Positions 45,778 through 50,071 of a stretch of 64,000 nt of DNA are shown in pieces. The position numbers were made by a program, and so were the translations under genes. The DNA lies in NCBI RefSeq assembly GCF_056746865.1, contig NZ_CM163382.1; one strand, given 5' to 3'. How positions within the stretch are numbered: position 1 is the stretch's first letter; each line of letters begins with the position of its first letter. A model generated the notes under the pieces. That model saw only the letters and a program-made list of their open reading frames with translations, did no database searches and was not told where the DNA came from.

Positions 45778-46149
45778 TAATTACACTGTGGGTTGACGCC
45801 GGAAGAATCAGAGAACAGATACCGTTCTTACTGTAAAACGTGGCTAATATTAATTGAGCACTGCAGTGTTCAGAGCACAAAGAAGAAAAAAGATGTGTGC
45901 GAATGCCTGTAATGTGTTAAAAGAATGTTCCGCGTTTCCGGTACGCTTTTCGTAACTAACAATGCAGGGTGACGTAACGCTGGTTGTGCCGGAAACGCGT
46001 CCCTCCCCCTATCTTTCCTGTTTGGATTTGCCCCTATATTTCTGGATTATCCGACAAAACCGGCGTGAAGTATTACTCTCGTCGCCCAGCACCATAAGGA
46101 TAACGCCCATAAAATCATGAAACTTTTCTTCCAGATTGGATACAATCAG

Positions 46150-46482
46150 GCCGTATCCCGTATTACAGGCTTATCACGTGTGACAGTCAGTCTCTGGGTG
46201 TGTTCAGGAACATTCCCTGAAATGTCAACCCGGCCTCCAGAGCGAGGACTTCTGGCCCCATGGAGGGAGTGGTTAAAAGAGCAACGAGAAAGTGGTAACT
46301 TCGGCGCGTGGCTGCAAGGATGGCAGCTGATGCTGCGGCTATATGTGAGGCAATCGGCAGTCGCTGGAATAATGGGGGTTGTCGAAAGTCATGTAAATAG
46401 ACTAAAAATGCTGAAAGGCCAGATGTATGGTCGAGCCGGATTTGAACTACTCAGACAGAGGGTCATGAGTCCACTGGCATGA
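46150..46482 (+). pseudogene. Duplicate of the ISL3-like transposase C-terminal fragment seen at 23102-23446
   Basis: Identical peptide ...SRITGLSRVTVSLWVCSGTFPEMSTRPPERG...VNRLKMLKGQMYGRAGFELLRQRVMSPLA. Confidence 0.5.
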
Positions 46483-46536
46483 AAATCTCCATCCAGGTTG
46501 CGTAAGAGCCACTTTTCATCCGTCGTCGATATCTGG

Positions 46537-46690
46537 GATAGCCATAGTGAAATAAAAAGCTGTCTGAATTAAATTATTTTGCACATATATTTTAATCCTG
46601 CACTGAATTAAGAATGGGTAATCAGTGACTGCTTGGACGGTCACTTTTAAGAGAAGGCATTAACAGAGAATGGTAAACAGGCTCAATATA
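46537..46690 (+). repeat. Uninterrupted copy of the sequence that flanks both sides of the IS256-family element at 21012-22329
   Basis: 46537-46602 matches 20936-21011 and 46603-46690 matches 22330-22420 with few mismatches. Confidence 0.7.
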
Positions 46691-47143
46691 TTATGTTGTT
46701 GGCACTACAGATGAATGATGGGATGATATTTTCCAATCCTTTCCATCCCACTCATAAGCGAAACTATAGCGTGCTGAAACTTGTTTTTTATCTTCAAAAG
46801 TAAACGTGTAATTCCCTGTATCAAGAGCCATATTGCATCCAATGCGAATAGTTCTGAAGTTTATTTCTCCAACAGGTTTTTTTTTCAAAAAATGCTCAAA
46901 ATAGTCAACTCTTTCTGCATCTGTAATCCTAATTTTTTTTGATACTGTGGGCAGTAAGATCGCATCACTTAAATAGTTATCAGCAACCTTCTTGGCATCA
47001 CCTGTTTTTAATGATTCATTCCAGCGATCGAATAACCTTTCAATGTCTTTACTATCTACCCGAATACACTTAACATTATCTACGTCACTTGCCCACGACG
47101 CTCCAGAAAACAGACACAGAATTAAAATATTTATTTTTTTCAT
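46691..47143 (-). CDS. Secreted hypothetical protein, possibly NTF2/SnoaL-like fold; AT-rich gene
   Basis: Signal peptide MKKINILILCLFSGASWA; 150 aa; fold guess is from general sequence character only. Confidence 0.4.
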   Translation of the reverse strand: MKKINILILCLFSGASWASDVDNVKCIRVDSKDIERLFDRWNESLKTGDAKKVADNYLSDAILLPTVSKKIRITDAERVDYFEHFLKKKPVGEINFRTIRIGCNMALDTGNYTFTFEDKKQVSARYSFAYEWDGKDWKISSHHSSVVPTT

Positions 47144-47385
47144 AACTCCTCCTGATCAGCCTGAAACTTTTTTAAAGTTTAATCATATTAATACAGTGCA
47201 ACTATTTGATAGTAAAAACGATGTTCTCTATTTTGTTAATAGATACTTCCTATTGTGTATATATTATGAGATTATTAAGAATAATACTCTCTGGGTCGTA
47301 GAGACAGGGTATAAGTCACAGGCTGGTGTGGTTCGGATGTTCTTGCCCCCTCAATATCAGACTGCTATTGTATCTTAAGTTAACG

Positions 47386-47739
47386 TTATCCGCTGACGTC
47401 GATATTCCCGTGGTGAGAGATAACCTAACGCACTATGCGGATGGTTTTCATTGTAATGCTCGAACGCCTCTGCAAGGTTATGCAATGCCGTTATTACATT
47501 CAGTTTCGGCATGAACGCGATGTAGTCTTCATTCACGTTTTCACGAACCTTTCTGCCATTCTATTGCTCTGAGGGCTACTGACTGCCGTCGTGCAGGGCT
47601 CCAGATTCAACTCTCTGGCGAATTGCCGTGTTTCATGAGCCGTATAAGCCGAACCGTTATCCGTCCGCCACTGGATTGCTCGTTCCGGTCCTTTATCGCC
47701 AAAGCGTTTTTCTATCGCTCCTAACATCACATCCTGCAC
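47386..47739 (-). pseudogene. IS3-family OrfB (integrase core) C-terminal fragment
   Basis: [45 protein letters not shown] and downstream [14 protein letters not shown]. Confidence 0.55.
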
Positions 47740-48503
47740 TGTCGGCTTTATCGTAACCTCCCGTACTGGTCACGGGCAGACTGTTCATCATGTTAAACCC
47801 AGCCGCTGTCAGATCATGCACCGGCCGGATGGCGGGCTGACCTGCCCCGCCGCGCTGCTGCCCGCCAATCCATTTCTTACCTTCCTTCCCGGTGGCCTGA
47901 CGTCCGGCCTCGTCCCCTTTCACCGCATCACCGTCACCGCTGTTCACCACCTTCTTGTACTCTTCCAGCATCGCTGGCCTGCGTCCATTTGCTGCGATCA
48001 GAAAAGTCCATCATCCGTTTTGCCATGTTCTGGCAGTTCAGTTACGCCTTGTCGAAAGCCACATTCGCCTGCAGCACACCGTTGGTGATCATGTCGTACA
48101 GGCCGGGGTTGGCACGCTGTATCACCATCGCCGGCAGACTGGCAGCGGCGCCGGTCGCCCCCTAAATCACATCCCCCATCAGATTTTTAAAGCCGTCGGT
48201 CAATCCGTTAAGATGATTACCCACCGTGGTCTTCAGGTCAAAGTTGCCGCACATCAGATCGCTGCTCCAGCCCAGGTCCATACCCAGCTTCTGCATGTTG
48301 CTGCGCGTGGCCAACTGTGAGATCACCGAGCCGCCACCCAGCGTATAGAACAGTTTGTCGGATACGGCGCCATCCACGGATTTCCCGTAACCGAACGTGC
48401 TGTCATTCAGTTTCGGCAGGGAAAGAAGATCAGCCATCGCCGGAATACTGCAGTACAGCATCACACTCAGTGCCACCATACCTGTTTTCATCTTCATCAT
48501 CAT
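47740..48503 (-). pseudogene. Exported protein of a conjugative-element operon (weak TraH-like guess), interrupted by in-frame TAG at 48159-48161 and truncated by the IS3 fragment
   Basis: Signal peptide MMMKMKTGMVALSVMLYCSIPAMA; reading frame continues past TAG (GATGAAASLPAMVIQRANPGLYDMITNGVLQANVAFDKA); family assignment is weak. Confidence 0.3.
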
Positions 48504-48509
48504 GGTTCC

Positions 48510-48872
48510 TTAAAAATTCGTACTGCCAAGGAATCGCTGCCCGCGCTTTTCGAAGCAGCTGTAAGGCTGCCACAGTGCAAAGGCTGCATTACCGTTCTCC
48601 GCCGCCTGGTGTTCACCATCCGGGAAAACGGCACAGGAACGCGACACTGACGGCGTCAGTCGCTGCCATTTGTGATTGCGGGTGCCGGTGTTTTCCTCCA
48701 CCGCCTCCGGGGGCCAGTAGCCGTCACGTTTCACGCCCTTAACCTCCCTGTAGACATGCGACTCCCCCATCCGCGTGATAATGTCGGCCACCCGCTGAGC
48801 CCCCACCGCCGCGGCCCGGTCATCATCGCTCTGCATCACAAAACCACTCCGGTGATAAACGCTCCCCCACAT
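48510..48872 (-). CDS. Hypothetical protein in the same operon remnant
   Basis: 120-aa ORF between two signal-peptide genes; no family recognised. Confidence 0.3.
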   Translation of the reverse strand: MWGSVYHRSGFVMQSDDDRAAAVGAQRVADIITRMGESHVYREVKGVKRDGYWPPEAVEENTGTRNHKWQRLTPSVSRSCAVFPDGEHQAAENGNAAFALWQPYSCFEKRGQRFLGSTNF

Positions 48873-48953
48873 GTTTTTATCGGCCTAGCTGCCAATCTCG
48901 CGTTTGCCGGGAACCTGTGCCTCTGGATACAGGGATTCAGGTAATCCCGTTCG

Positions 48954-49484
48954 CTAGACGATGCTGTCCAGGGTACTGAGGAAATAGGCCATGGCCGGTG
49001 TCACCGGTGAATCACAGCTGAATCCGGGTACCATCCCGCCGATAAGCTGTGTGGCCGGATGACCCAGCGCATCTGCATATTTGAAACGAATTGCTGAACG
49101 GCGCTTCCCCTGTATTTTCATATCCGCCGGATTTCCCCCGCCGGCACTCAGCCCGGACAGGCCGTCAGTGATGGCATTCTCCGGGCCACCTGCGGTCCGG
49201 CTGACCAGCGACATCTCTTTCCAGGGATTACCACCCGGTGCCGTATAGGTGGAAATAACCACTTCCGGGATGAAATGTGTCACCTTCACGGAAATTCTGA
49301 CCGTACAGCCAGACGCGCTGCAGTAAAGCCAGTAACAAATCCCGCTGACACGCCAGCTGATATAGTCCGGTGCCGCAGTACTGGCGATAATGCTGGCGGT
49401 GTTCAGTGATACAGACGCCAGGGGCAGTGATGCCACACTCAGTAACAGCACGCCGGTACGCAGACGACATTTCAGGGACATCAT
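48954..49484 (-). CDS. Exported hypothetical protein, cysteine-containing, conjugative-element-like
   Basis: Signal peptide; start ATG overlaps the upstream gene stop (ATGA coupling at 49481-49484). Confidence 0.4.
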   Translation of the reverse strand: MMSLKCRLRTGVLLLSVASLPLASVSLNTASIIASTAAPDYISWRVSGICYWLYCSASGCTVRISVKVTHFIPEVVISTYTAPGGNPWKEMSLVSRTAGGPENAITDGLSGLSAGGGNPADMKIQGKRRSAIRFKYADALGHPATQLIGGMVPGFSCDSPVTPAMAYFLSTLDSIV

Positions 49485-49876
49485 GGCTGCACTCCTCCCT
49501 CAGCACGGATTTTCCCGGCCATCACCACATCCATGGTGCCGTAAACCACCTCACTGTCATCAAACACCACGGCAGGGTATTTCTTCACGCCCAGCGACTA
49601 GGCATGTGCCACATCGCGGTAATGACCGGCCAGTTCCGCCTGCATCGTCTGCCATTCGGGAGACTTCATACGTACCCTGACCACCGATTCAGCCTCACCC
49701 GCATCAGCAGGCAACAGGCCCCAAAAGCGGCTCTGAAGCTGCTCAGGCGCATCCAGCAGAACCACCCTGACACCATCAGGAGGATTAACGGGAAGATGCT
49801 GAGAATCGGTATAAATTGTTGTGCCGGCAGACGCTGCCAGCGGCAGGAAAAACAGGGAACAGAAAATCCGGTACAT
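49481..49876 (-). pseudogene. Exported thioredoxin-fold-like protein (TrbB/DsbA-like guess) with in-frame TAG at 49598-49600
   Basis: Signal peptide MYRIFCSLFFLPLAASA; frame continues after TAG for 39 codons to a TGA that overlaps the next start. Confidence 0.35.
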
Positions 49877-50071
49877 CGTACACCTCAGTCAGATATTATC
49901 TGACTGACAGCGTGCGAAGAAAGCGCTCATTTATCAGCAATAAATTAAAAACGGGATTAAAAAATTACGGTGGGATCCGGGGAAGTGTATCTGCCAAGCA
50001 TAACAGACAGTCTGTGATTATACCCGGCCTTTCACAAAGCCGGGGAACTGATTCATACCAAGTGGTGATTT

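Follow-up and report, generated by a model that had tools for sequence, protein, structure and literature searches.

The stretch of DNA analysed here (64,000 nucleotides of contig NZ_CM163382.1 from the RefSeq assembly GCF_056746865.1, taken at its full length and called “the window” in what follows) carries on its minus strand a gene for a 150-residue protein, which RefSeq names “SgcJ/EcaC family oxidoreductase” (WP_029400372.1, the annotation of an identical copy) and which is also labelled “DUF4440” in the databases. We conclude from its sequence that the gene encodes the precursor of a COG4875-type carbonic anhydrase (CA) of the iota class. The gene and those of its parts on which the argument leans are as follows.

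46691..47143, minus strand: complete coding sequence with an ATG start, from the listing of open reading frames (ORFs); putative 150-residue iota-class CA precursor
47146..47153, minus strand: Shine-Dalgarno sequence AGGAGGAG, read from the sequence, with a TT spacer, 2 bases before the ATG
47090..47143, minus strand: signal peptide, residues 1-18 (MKKINILILCLFSGASWA), with a predicted signal peptidase I cut after Ala18
46694..47089, minus strand: mature chain, residues 19-150 (132 residues, ~15.3 kDa), a single NTF2-like / CaMKII-AD domain of the COG4875 type
47066..47068, minus strand: codon of Cys26, proposed disulfide partner of Cys103 (invariant in close homologues; covariation)
46946..46948, minus strand: codon of Thr66, part of the invariant motif LLPT; its counterparts are the catalytic Thr106 in Anabaena all2909 and Thr62 in the Thalassiosira pseudonana enzyme
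46889..46903, minus strand: codons of Tyr81-Phe82-Glu83-His84-Phe85 (translation; PMC8395977)
46835..46837, minus strand: codon of Cys103, proposed disulfide partner of Cys26 (invariant in close homologues; covariation)
46709..46720, minus strand: codons of the HHSS motif, His142-His143-Ser144-Ser145, the iota-CA signature (translation; PMC8425729, PMC8132391, PMC6776030)

The ORF, which the initial annotation had taken for a real gene, stands in the ORF listing on the minus strand and is not a chance one, because it has 323 homologues at E<=1e-5 and matches a solved structure at E 1e-30. The messenger 5' of its start reads ...CAGGAGGAGTT-ATG, which amounts to a strong Shine-Dalgarno sequence. 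The foreign, low-GC composition that had been ascribed to the gene is also seen, as its GC content is 34.9% (27.8% at third codon positions) against 48.9% for the window, and it is enclosed by an 892-bp block (46483-47374) of 35.4% GC throughout.

The predicted signal peptide, likewise proposed earlier, has all the parts one would expect of it: the N-terminus (MKKINILILCLFSGASWA, followed by SDVD) opens with the n-region MKK, continues with INILILCLF as its hydrophobic core (maximum Kyte-Doolittle 9-mer 2.97) and closes with the c-region SGASWA, whose -3/-1 residues are small, and no lipobox is found within it. Ala18 is an invariant column amid the otherwise variable N-terminus in the close-homologue alignment, the same n/h/c architecture is seen, by simple criteria, in 108 of the 117 full-length close homologues, and residues 1-20 have a low predicted local distance difference test score in the AlphaFold model. 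An N-terminal signal peptide is among the features that define the iota-CA class in bacteria, where it has been reported before (PMC7191908, PMC8132391), and the precursor is probably Sec-exported, cut after Ala18 and periplasmic. A lipobox, LILTAC or LILTGC, in the homologues of Herbaspirillum (loci L031 and L092) points to lipoprotein versions, and in those of Streptomyces (loci L049, L062, L066 and L089) the signal peptides are long and Ala-rich, the motif reads NHHSS and cysteines are absent.

As for the domain that follows, the best Pfam match is CaMKII_AD (PF08332, E 5.3e-13), with weaker ones to SnoaL_3 and DUF4440, and the score of 42.8 bits with TIGR02246 (“SgcJ/EcaC family oxidoreductase”) lies above the curated NCBIfam cut-off of 33.95 for this model, which is of the “subfamily” type and hence broad. 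The fold is predicted to be NTF2-like, with CaMKII hubs among the structural matches, which vindicates what had been offered only as a guess and agrees with the CaMKII-AD / NTF2-like cone that characterizes the class. The solved structure mentioned above is PDB 3H51, ~45-50% identical over residues 30-149, which is treated in the literature as the iota-CA of Xanthomonas campestris and has served as the template on which the kinetically characterised BteCA-iota was modelled (PMC7191908, PMC8425729), a putative bicarbonate having been reported in its cavity (PMC8425729). Significant similarity to an experimentally validated member comes from a profile of 30 close homologues, which matches in the PDB all three repeats of the Bigelowiella iota-CA 7C5X (Bn86287) at E 3.9e-11, the match running through the C-terminal strands that end in HHSS. 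[quoted passage not shown] The published cleavage-site motif of BteCA-iota, ASA-QN, had no match among the retrieved proteins.

Two further observations concern the family at large. The best-scoring relatives in the 50%-identity library (P0121-P0139) are multi-repeat proteins in which as many as six tandem iota-CA domains occur within 954 aa, an architecture resembling that of the algal LCIP63, and in precomputed tables the homologues carry a match to a recent Pfam family, PF27546 “MICAH”, on which a literature search returned nothing relevant.

The active site is where the resemblance becomes specific. Residues 141-145 read S-H-H-S-S, in agreement with the (H)HHSS motif as defined for the class (PMC6776030, PMC7191908, PMC8425729), and an xHHSS motif is present in 262 of the 270 retrieved relatives. 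The Thr, Tyr, His and Ser of the pocket and its two Phe are all found at the corresponding sequence positions: Tyr81 is the equivalent of the catalytic Tyr124 in Anabaena and Tyr77 in the diatom, in the Anabaena enzyme the counterparts of His143 and Ser145 are His197 and Ser199, Phe82 and Phe85 correspond to Phe78 and Phe81 of the proposed CO2 site, and domain 1 of tp-iota-CA has exactly this spacing (T, +15 Y, +77 H, +79 S; PMC8395977). Mutagenesis of all2909 and Bn86287 has found the Thr and Tyr essential and the His and second Ser of HHSS important, and crystals of these Anabaena and Bigelowiella COG4337 proteins, which are metal-free CAs, hold bicarbonate or iodide in the cone cavity (PMC8132391). 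In the close-homologue alignment T66, Y81, F82, F85 and S145 are invariant and H143 is nearly so. Across a wider set of 229 domains, drawn from the query and the 150 best cluster representatives (50% identity) of a 1.84-billion-protein library, the six pocket positions are conserved in ~95-99% (non-gap domains: T66 202/213, Y81 210/214, F82 201/214, F85 207/213, H143 197/199 and S145 196/197), and the query equals the consensus at 29 of the 29 columns conserved at >=85%. Every sequence-level feature that defines the iota-CA class was thus looked for and is present in the window protein. A degeneration of the E. coli (Escherichia coli) allele was considered and rejected: the nine columns at which it deviates, each >=90% conserved in its own clade, all vary family-wide, and the 29 family-wide columns are all matched.

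Apart from the pocket, one new detail of the analysis is the covariation of Cys26 and Cys103, which across the wider family are both present in 80 domains and both absent from 34, Cys26 standing alone in 3 and Cys103 in 1 (in all the others position 26 is a gap). It is on this covariation that we base the suggestion of a structural periplasmic disulfide between the two. The Streptomyces members have neither cysteine, which fits the pair as an adaptation to the Gram-negative periplasm; 3H51 lacks the pair, with no cysteine at the position of Cys103, and has RLLDDDS where the window protein has RIGCN. A two-cysteine extracytoplasmic “CaMKII-AD / SgcJ-EcaC” protein of Dickeya solani, compared here as a family member and not as an established orthologue, shows a 3-fold drop in abundance when dsbA is mutated (PMC8775594, Table 1).

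Placed beside the enzymes already described, the window protein may be compared with BteCA-iota of Burkholderia territorii, which hydrates CO2 with a kcat of 3e5 per second, has been modelled on 3H51 and is the sole kinetically characterised bacterial COG4875-type iota-CA (PMC7191908). The two share a single domain (~160 aa in BteCA-iota), a signal peptide, the SgcJ/EcaC annotation and the C-terminal (H)HHSS; they differ, as far as the published description allows the comparison, in having HHHSS and a 25-residue signal peptide there and SHHSS and 18 residues here, and BteCA-iota is reported to be Zn-dependent. Another relative, 3H51 (X. campestris NP_636218, “XcaCA”, a putative CaMKII association domain of the SgcJ/EcaC family), is itself called an iota-CA by inference, and both it and BteCA-iota are dimers (PMC8425729). 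LCIP63/tp-iota-CA shares the COG4875 domain, its residues 62/77/78/81/139/141 being 66/81/82/85/143/145 here at identical spacing (PMC6776030, PMC8395977), but it has four tandem domains, is chloroplast-targeted, is induced by low CO2 and is reported to prefer Mn2+, in contrast to the one domain and bacterial signal peptide of the window protein. The COG4337-type enzymes all2909 (7C5V) and Bn86287 (7C5X) belong to another subfamily, with an insertion and a Thr-to-Tyr spacing of 17-18 instead of 15 (PMC8132391), and their similarity to the window protein is detectable only in the C-terminal half.

How such a protein might work can be sketched from these relatives. The Sec pathway would export the precursor, which would be cleaved after Ala18; once periplasmic, the mature protein of 132 residues would adopt the fold of an NTF2-like cone, probably with a disulfide made by DsbA pinning Cys26 to Cys103 and, by homology to 3H51 and BteCA-iota, probably paired into a homodimer. 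In the cavity, the hydroxyls of Thr66, Tyr81 and Ser145 would, together with His143, activate a water molecule, which would then attack CO2 held against Phe82 and Phe85 to yield HCO3- and H+. This catalytic scheme is taken from the structures and mutants of the Anabaena and Bigelowiella enzymes and is carried over to the window protein through residue conservation alone, by which its CO2 hydratase activity would also be inferred.

Taken as a whole, an exported single-domain COG4875 / CaMKII-AD iota-CA, horizontally acquired, seems to be the best explanation of the gene, and we would put its probability at roughly three in four. A number of points, however, weigh against it. The enzymology of single-domain bacterial COG4875 proteins comes down to one enzyme, BteCA-iota, and one group (PMC7191908), the activity data of the iota class as a whole come from non-enterobacterial members, and the metal requirement (Zn2+, Mn2+ or none) and metal site of the COG4875 type are disputed within the literature (PMC8425729). 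No universally conserved neighbour, bicarbonate transporter or other CO2-related gene is seen in the gene neighbourhoods of five homologues, of two of the closest homologues and of 86 loci from a degenerate-pattern scan. On the DNA side, a scan of 46450-47450 found neither a consensus sigma-70 promoter nor a canonical intrinsic terminator on the coding strand, the gene is AT-rich, as is typical of an H-NS target, and lies inside a heavily decayed island, and truncated alleles exist, of 74 aa in strain SMS-3-5 (through an IS1 insertion) and of 93 aa on 90 contigs.

What synteny there is in those neighbourhoods is clade-local: yfeH-like and add genes in Pectobacterium/Dickeya, katG in Rhizobium, katB-ankB in Pseudomonas lundensis and an operon of the phosphotransferase system in Buttiauxella. 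In P. lundensis (locus L006, 3772-6447) katB-ankB is followed on the same strand, after a 60-bp gap, by the iota-CA gene, and at ten Rhizobium loci (e.g., L050, 2332-4617) a gene for a KatG-like catalase-peroxidase is convergent to it; catalase neighbours in two unrelated lineages may link periplasmic CO2/bicarbonate chemistry to peroxide stress. The largest neighbour “cluster” (19 loci) was disregarded, as it is made up of generic histidine-kinase-like or spurious high-GC ORFs.

Those same catalase genes might instead point to redox stress, and could be claimed for the view that the protein is an NTF2-like enzyme or binding protein for some small molecule other than CO2 (an oxidoreductase, an isomerase/dehydratase or a carboxylate binder like the CaMKII hub cavity), the iota-CA label having been mis-assigned to the clade. 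NTF2-like folds do host many chemistries (PMC3924330), the TIGR02246 cut-off is passed, and the bacterial COG4875 enzymology was noted above to be the work of a single laboratory. The name “oxidoreductase”, however, was found to have no experimental basis in the literature, where the SgcJ/EcaC family is described as function-unknown (PMC8425729), and identity to SgcJ itself is only 13%, whereas HHSS and every residue found necessary for CA activity by mutagenesis are conserved, CA activity in the iota class has been found by three independent groups (PMC6776030, PMC7191908, PMC8132391), and a putative bicarbonate is reported in the 3H51 cavity. A chemistry unrelated to CO2 is thus unlikely, and the evidence favours annotating the protein as an iota-CA over either of its database names.

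Another view would leave the identity of the protein untouched and deny it a function: an intact passenger, stranded as cargo, silenced (e.g., by H-NS) or promoterless, and kept merely because it was acquired recently. The surroundings of the gene, which bear on this, are the following.

46117..46482, plus strand: left boundary, C-terminal fragment (pseudogene) of an ISL3-family transposase, matching NF033550 at E 4.2e-9 over profile positions 275-368 of 370
46483..46690, minus strand: AT-rich region downstream of the gene, with a weak hairpin AGTGAC-N10-GTCACT without a T-run
47154..47374, minus strand: AT-rich (~35% GC) native upstream region, the presumed site of a promoter (from composition)
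47375..47767, minus strand: right boundary, C-terminal fragment of an IS3-family transposase with a frameshifted integrase core (profile matches, RefSeq)

The isolation between fragments of insertion sequences (IS) on which the initial annotation had remarked is therefore real, with an ISL3-family element on the left, which RefSeq calls a “transposase, frameshifted, incomplete”, and an IS3-family one on the right, whose 47375-47739 segment matches rve_3 (E 6.6e-9) and rve (E 1.6e-8) on the minus strand and which, taken alone, has matches in thousands of E. coli records and in 401 plasmids. In strain ECCNB12-2 (NZ_CP033635) the island around the gene starts with an integrase next to ynjA and is a mosaic of IS elements and pseudogenes in which few genes are intact, namely those for a YebF-family protein, cytochrome b562, PhoX, the iota-CA, iha and an amiC paralogue; remnants of an integrative and conjugative element (ICE), TIGR03755/6/7, are also found there. 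The module made up of the iota-CA, the IS3 fragment, the ICE remnants and iha is also present in SMS-3-5, at another site on the chromosome. Of the 5426 complete E. coli genomes, 51 (~1%) have the gene and the rest do not; it is always chromosomal and on a decayed genomic island, with all E. coli copies >=99.8% identical and many of the carriers coming from chickens and humans. It is hence neither a housekeeping protein of E. coli nor derived from an IS, the two identities against which the initial annotation had set its own proposal.

That the gene sits between two transposase fragments on an island of mostly pseudogenes, that neither promoter nor terminator is found on its coding strand and that several truncated alleles circulate would all suit a functionless passenger, as would the fact that purifying selection is not demonstrable, because the E. 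coli copies are so nearly identical. Matches to promoters on the plus strand in the scanned region are no commoner than in shuffled sequence. Against such a passenger, most of the 51 carrier genomes have the ORF at full length, the exact protein is found on at least 999 contigs, a strong Shine-Dalgarno sequence has been kept along with ~230 bp of the gene's native AT-rich DNA upstream, and the agreement with all 29 family-conserved columns leaves no sign of decay in the coding sequence. On balance, a passenger that does nothing is rather improbable.

Several further features of the island may be placed on record. It spans window positions ~29250-64000 (corresponding to locus L001, 2851-37601) and its integrase is of the tyrosine type; its intact genes are largely for exported or envelope proteins, and small genes of the PerC and ProQ/FinO families are also present. 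The ICE remnants lie at 48162-49900 on the minus strand, where the match of ORF 48162-48503 to TIGR03755 goes no further than the first 67 positions and the adjacent TIGR03756 and TIGR03757 genes are pseudogenes with internal stops (RefSeq, identical copies), and the GC content of this region is 56-60% vs 35% in the iota-CA block. The SMS-3-5 module (locus L014, 7671-8199) adjoins alpha-galactosidase and sucrose-type genes.

The presence of iha, and carriers that are mainly poultry and human extra-intestinal isolates, might tempt one to regard the product of a gene on such a horizontally acquired island as a secreted virulence effector or an adhesion-related factor, the former of which had been suggested initially. 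The claim of an effector is unsupported, because a cleavable Sec signal peptide predicts the periplasm and not delivery to a host; this signal peptide is a classical one, no secretion-system signal is seen, no intact secretion apparatus lies nearby (the ICE genes being pseudogenes), and the homologues among the 86 loci, far from being restricted to pathogens, are widespread in soil, plant and water bacteria and keep the enzyme-like pocket residues, all of which makes this reading very improbable indeed. Hardly credible is a CaMKII-hub-like scaffold oligomerising into large rings, for, although the best Pfam match is the CaMKII association domain, hubs are among the fold matches and some bacterial hub-like proteins form 14-20-mers (10.1101/536094), those ring-forming bacterial proteins are ~50% identical to human hubs, the window protein is only 10-14% identical in structural alignment and has no kinase or other domain attached, and 3H51 and BteCA-iota are dimers (PMC8425729). 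A CaMKII hub proper was likewise rejected for a single exported domain in a protein of 150 aa, with no kinase and at that level of identity. In an alignment by eye with a CaMKII sequence, only Arg125 falls on one of the three arginines of the hub cavity (the cavity itself being that of 10.1101/536094), and this alignment was not used as evidence.

Returning to the iota-CA, its gene would have come by horizontal transfer from an unsampled low-GC donor, and its present state would be that of an isolated 0.9-kb AT-rich remnant between IS fragments, within a decayed ICE-derived island that also holds iha. The nearest relatives outside E. coli are 65-71% identical (the best of them 70-71%) and include those of Enterobacter, Providencia, Yersinia, Serratia and Lelliottia, and a donor search by a degenerate-pattern scan of one genome from each of 100,044 GTDB species returned the 86 family loci, none of them >68% identical. 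The hosts of these are environmental and plant-associated Enterobacterales, Pseudomonas, Rhizobium, Herbaspirillum and Streptomyces. Homologues tend to be AT-richer than their own host loci, and most of them stand alone.

The other CAs of E. coli are cytoplasmic beta- and gamma-CAs, with no alpha-CA among them (PMC7321114, PMC9341340). Because these other CAs are cytoplasmic, the window protein would be the one to provide periplasmic interconversion of CO2 and bicarbonate, the accessory gene thereby adding CO2 trapping as bicarbonate and/or buffering of periplasmic pH. Whether this would make it, as the sole periplasmic CA in E. coli, a lineage-specific fitness factor in the poultry and extra-intestinal lineages that have the iha island is a more speculative matter, and we consider it improbable; the possible routes would be CO2 retention in ambient air, periplasmic pH buffering and bicarbonate-dependent peroxide chemistry, the last of which is hinted at because homologues are independently linked to catalase genes. 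The periplasmic stress protein of the initial annotation is, by way of the same catalase links and of DsbA, a loose possibility. If active, the enzyme would be the only periplasmic CA in E. coli and as such a non-essential handle on periplasmic CO2 hydration in an enteric bacterium.

In sum, the gene of the window is real, its product counts as an ordinary member of an enzyme class already described, and the gene itself is not new: an “Ecoli_iota” of 150 residues, annotated as SgcJ/EcaC, has been listed as discovered and uncharacterised (PMC7321114, Table 1), and it has later been stated that “the E. coli genome encodes beta-, gamma- and iota-CAs” (PMC9341340). The “unknown function” assigned to it initially does not, accordingly, do justice to a protein of a described class with a published E. 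coli entry. What does need correcting in the literature is that the iota-CA gene is accessory (~1% of complete genomes) and not a property of the species E. coli, and the strain should therefore be specified wherever E. coli models CA inhibition. The published entry is, moreover, ambiguous, because E. coli can carry a second 150-aa iota-CA, which reaches it only on qnrB2 plasmids.

This second protein, WP_003833285.1, is 67% identical to the window protein, has the same length (150 aa), signal peptide, Cys pair and motifs, and is likewise a mobile stand-alone iota-CA gene product of Enterobacteriaceae, E. coli plasmids included; it differs in that its gene is plasmid- and integron-borne and less AT-rich, that of the window being chromosomal only (at the DNA level, the search of PLSDB plasmids found no copy of the latter, only the IS3 fragment being matched). 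Its gene and qnrB2 are 42 bp apart within ISCR1 complex class 1 integrons, e.g., on the IncN plasmid pJIE137 (locus L015, 6956-7408) and on a 5.7-kb Enterobacter plasmid (further locus coordinates: L016, 2849-3301). Because the protein is 99.3% identical to a chromosomal copy beside qnrB in Citrobacter portucalensis (compare L072, 2896-4034), its gene derives from the chromosome of the Citrobacter freundii complex and has hitch-hiked with qnrB2 onto resistance plasmids. On the speculative reading of the window protein as a fitness factor, considered improbable above, the two genes together would mean that Enterobacteriaceae trade periplasmic CO2/bicarbonate chemistry horizontally.

A gene for a Crp-like protein of ~200 aa, with weak matches to cyclic-nucleotide-binding (cNMP) and winged-helix HTH_46 domains, is a convergent neighbour of the iota-CA gene both on an Enterobacter plasmid and at a Pantoea locus; its two copies (L002, 6750-7355, minus strand; L008, 6669-7265, minus strand) are 52% identical to each other, and tblastn finds no such neighbour in the window. 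Relatives of the iota-CA are encoded by 494 PLSDB plasmids altogether, among them 137 from Klebsiella, 130 from Ralstonia, 62 from Rhizobium, 56 from Enterobacter, 52 from Pantoea and 13 from Escherichia.

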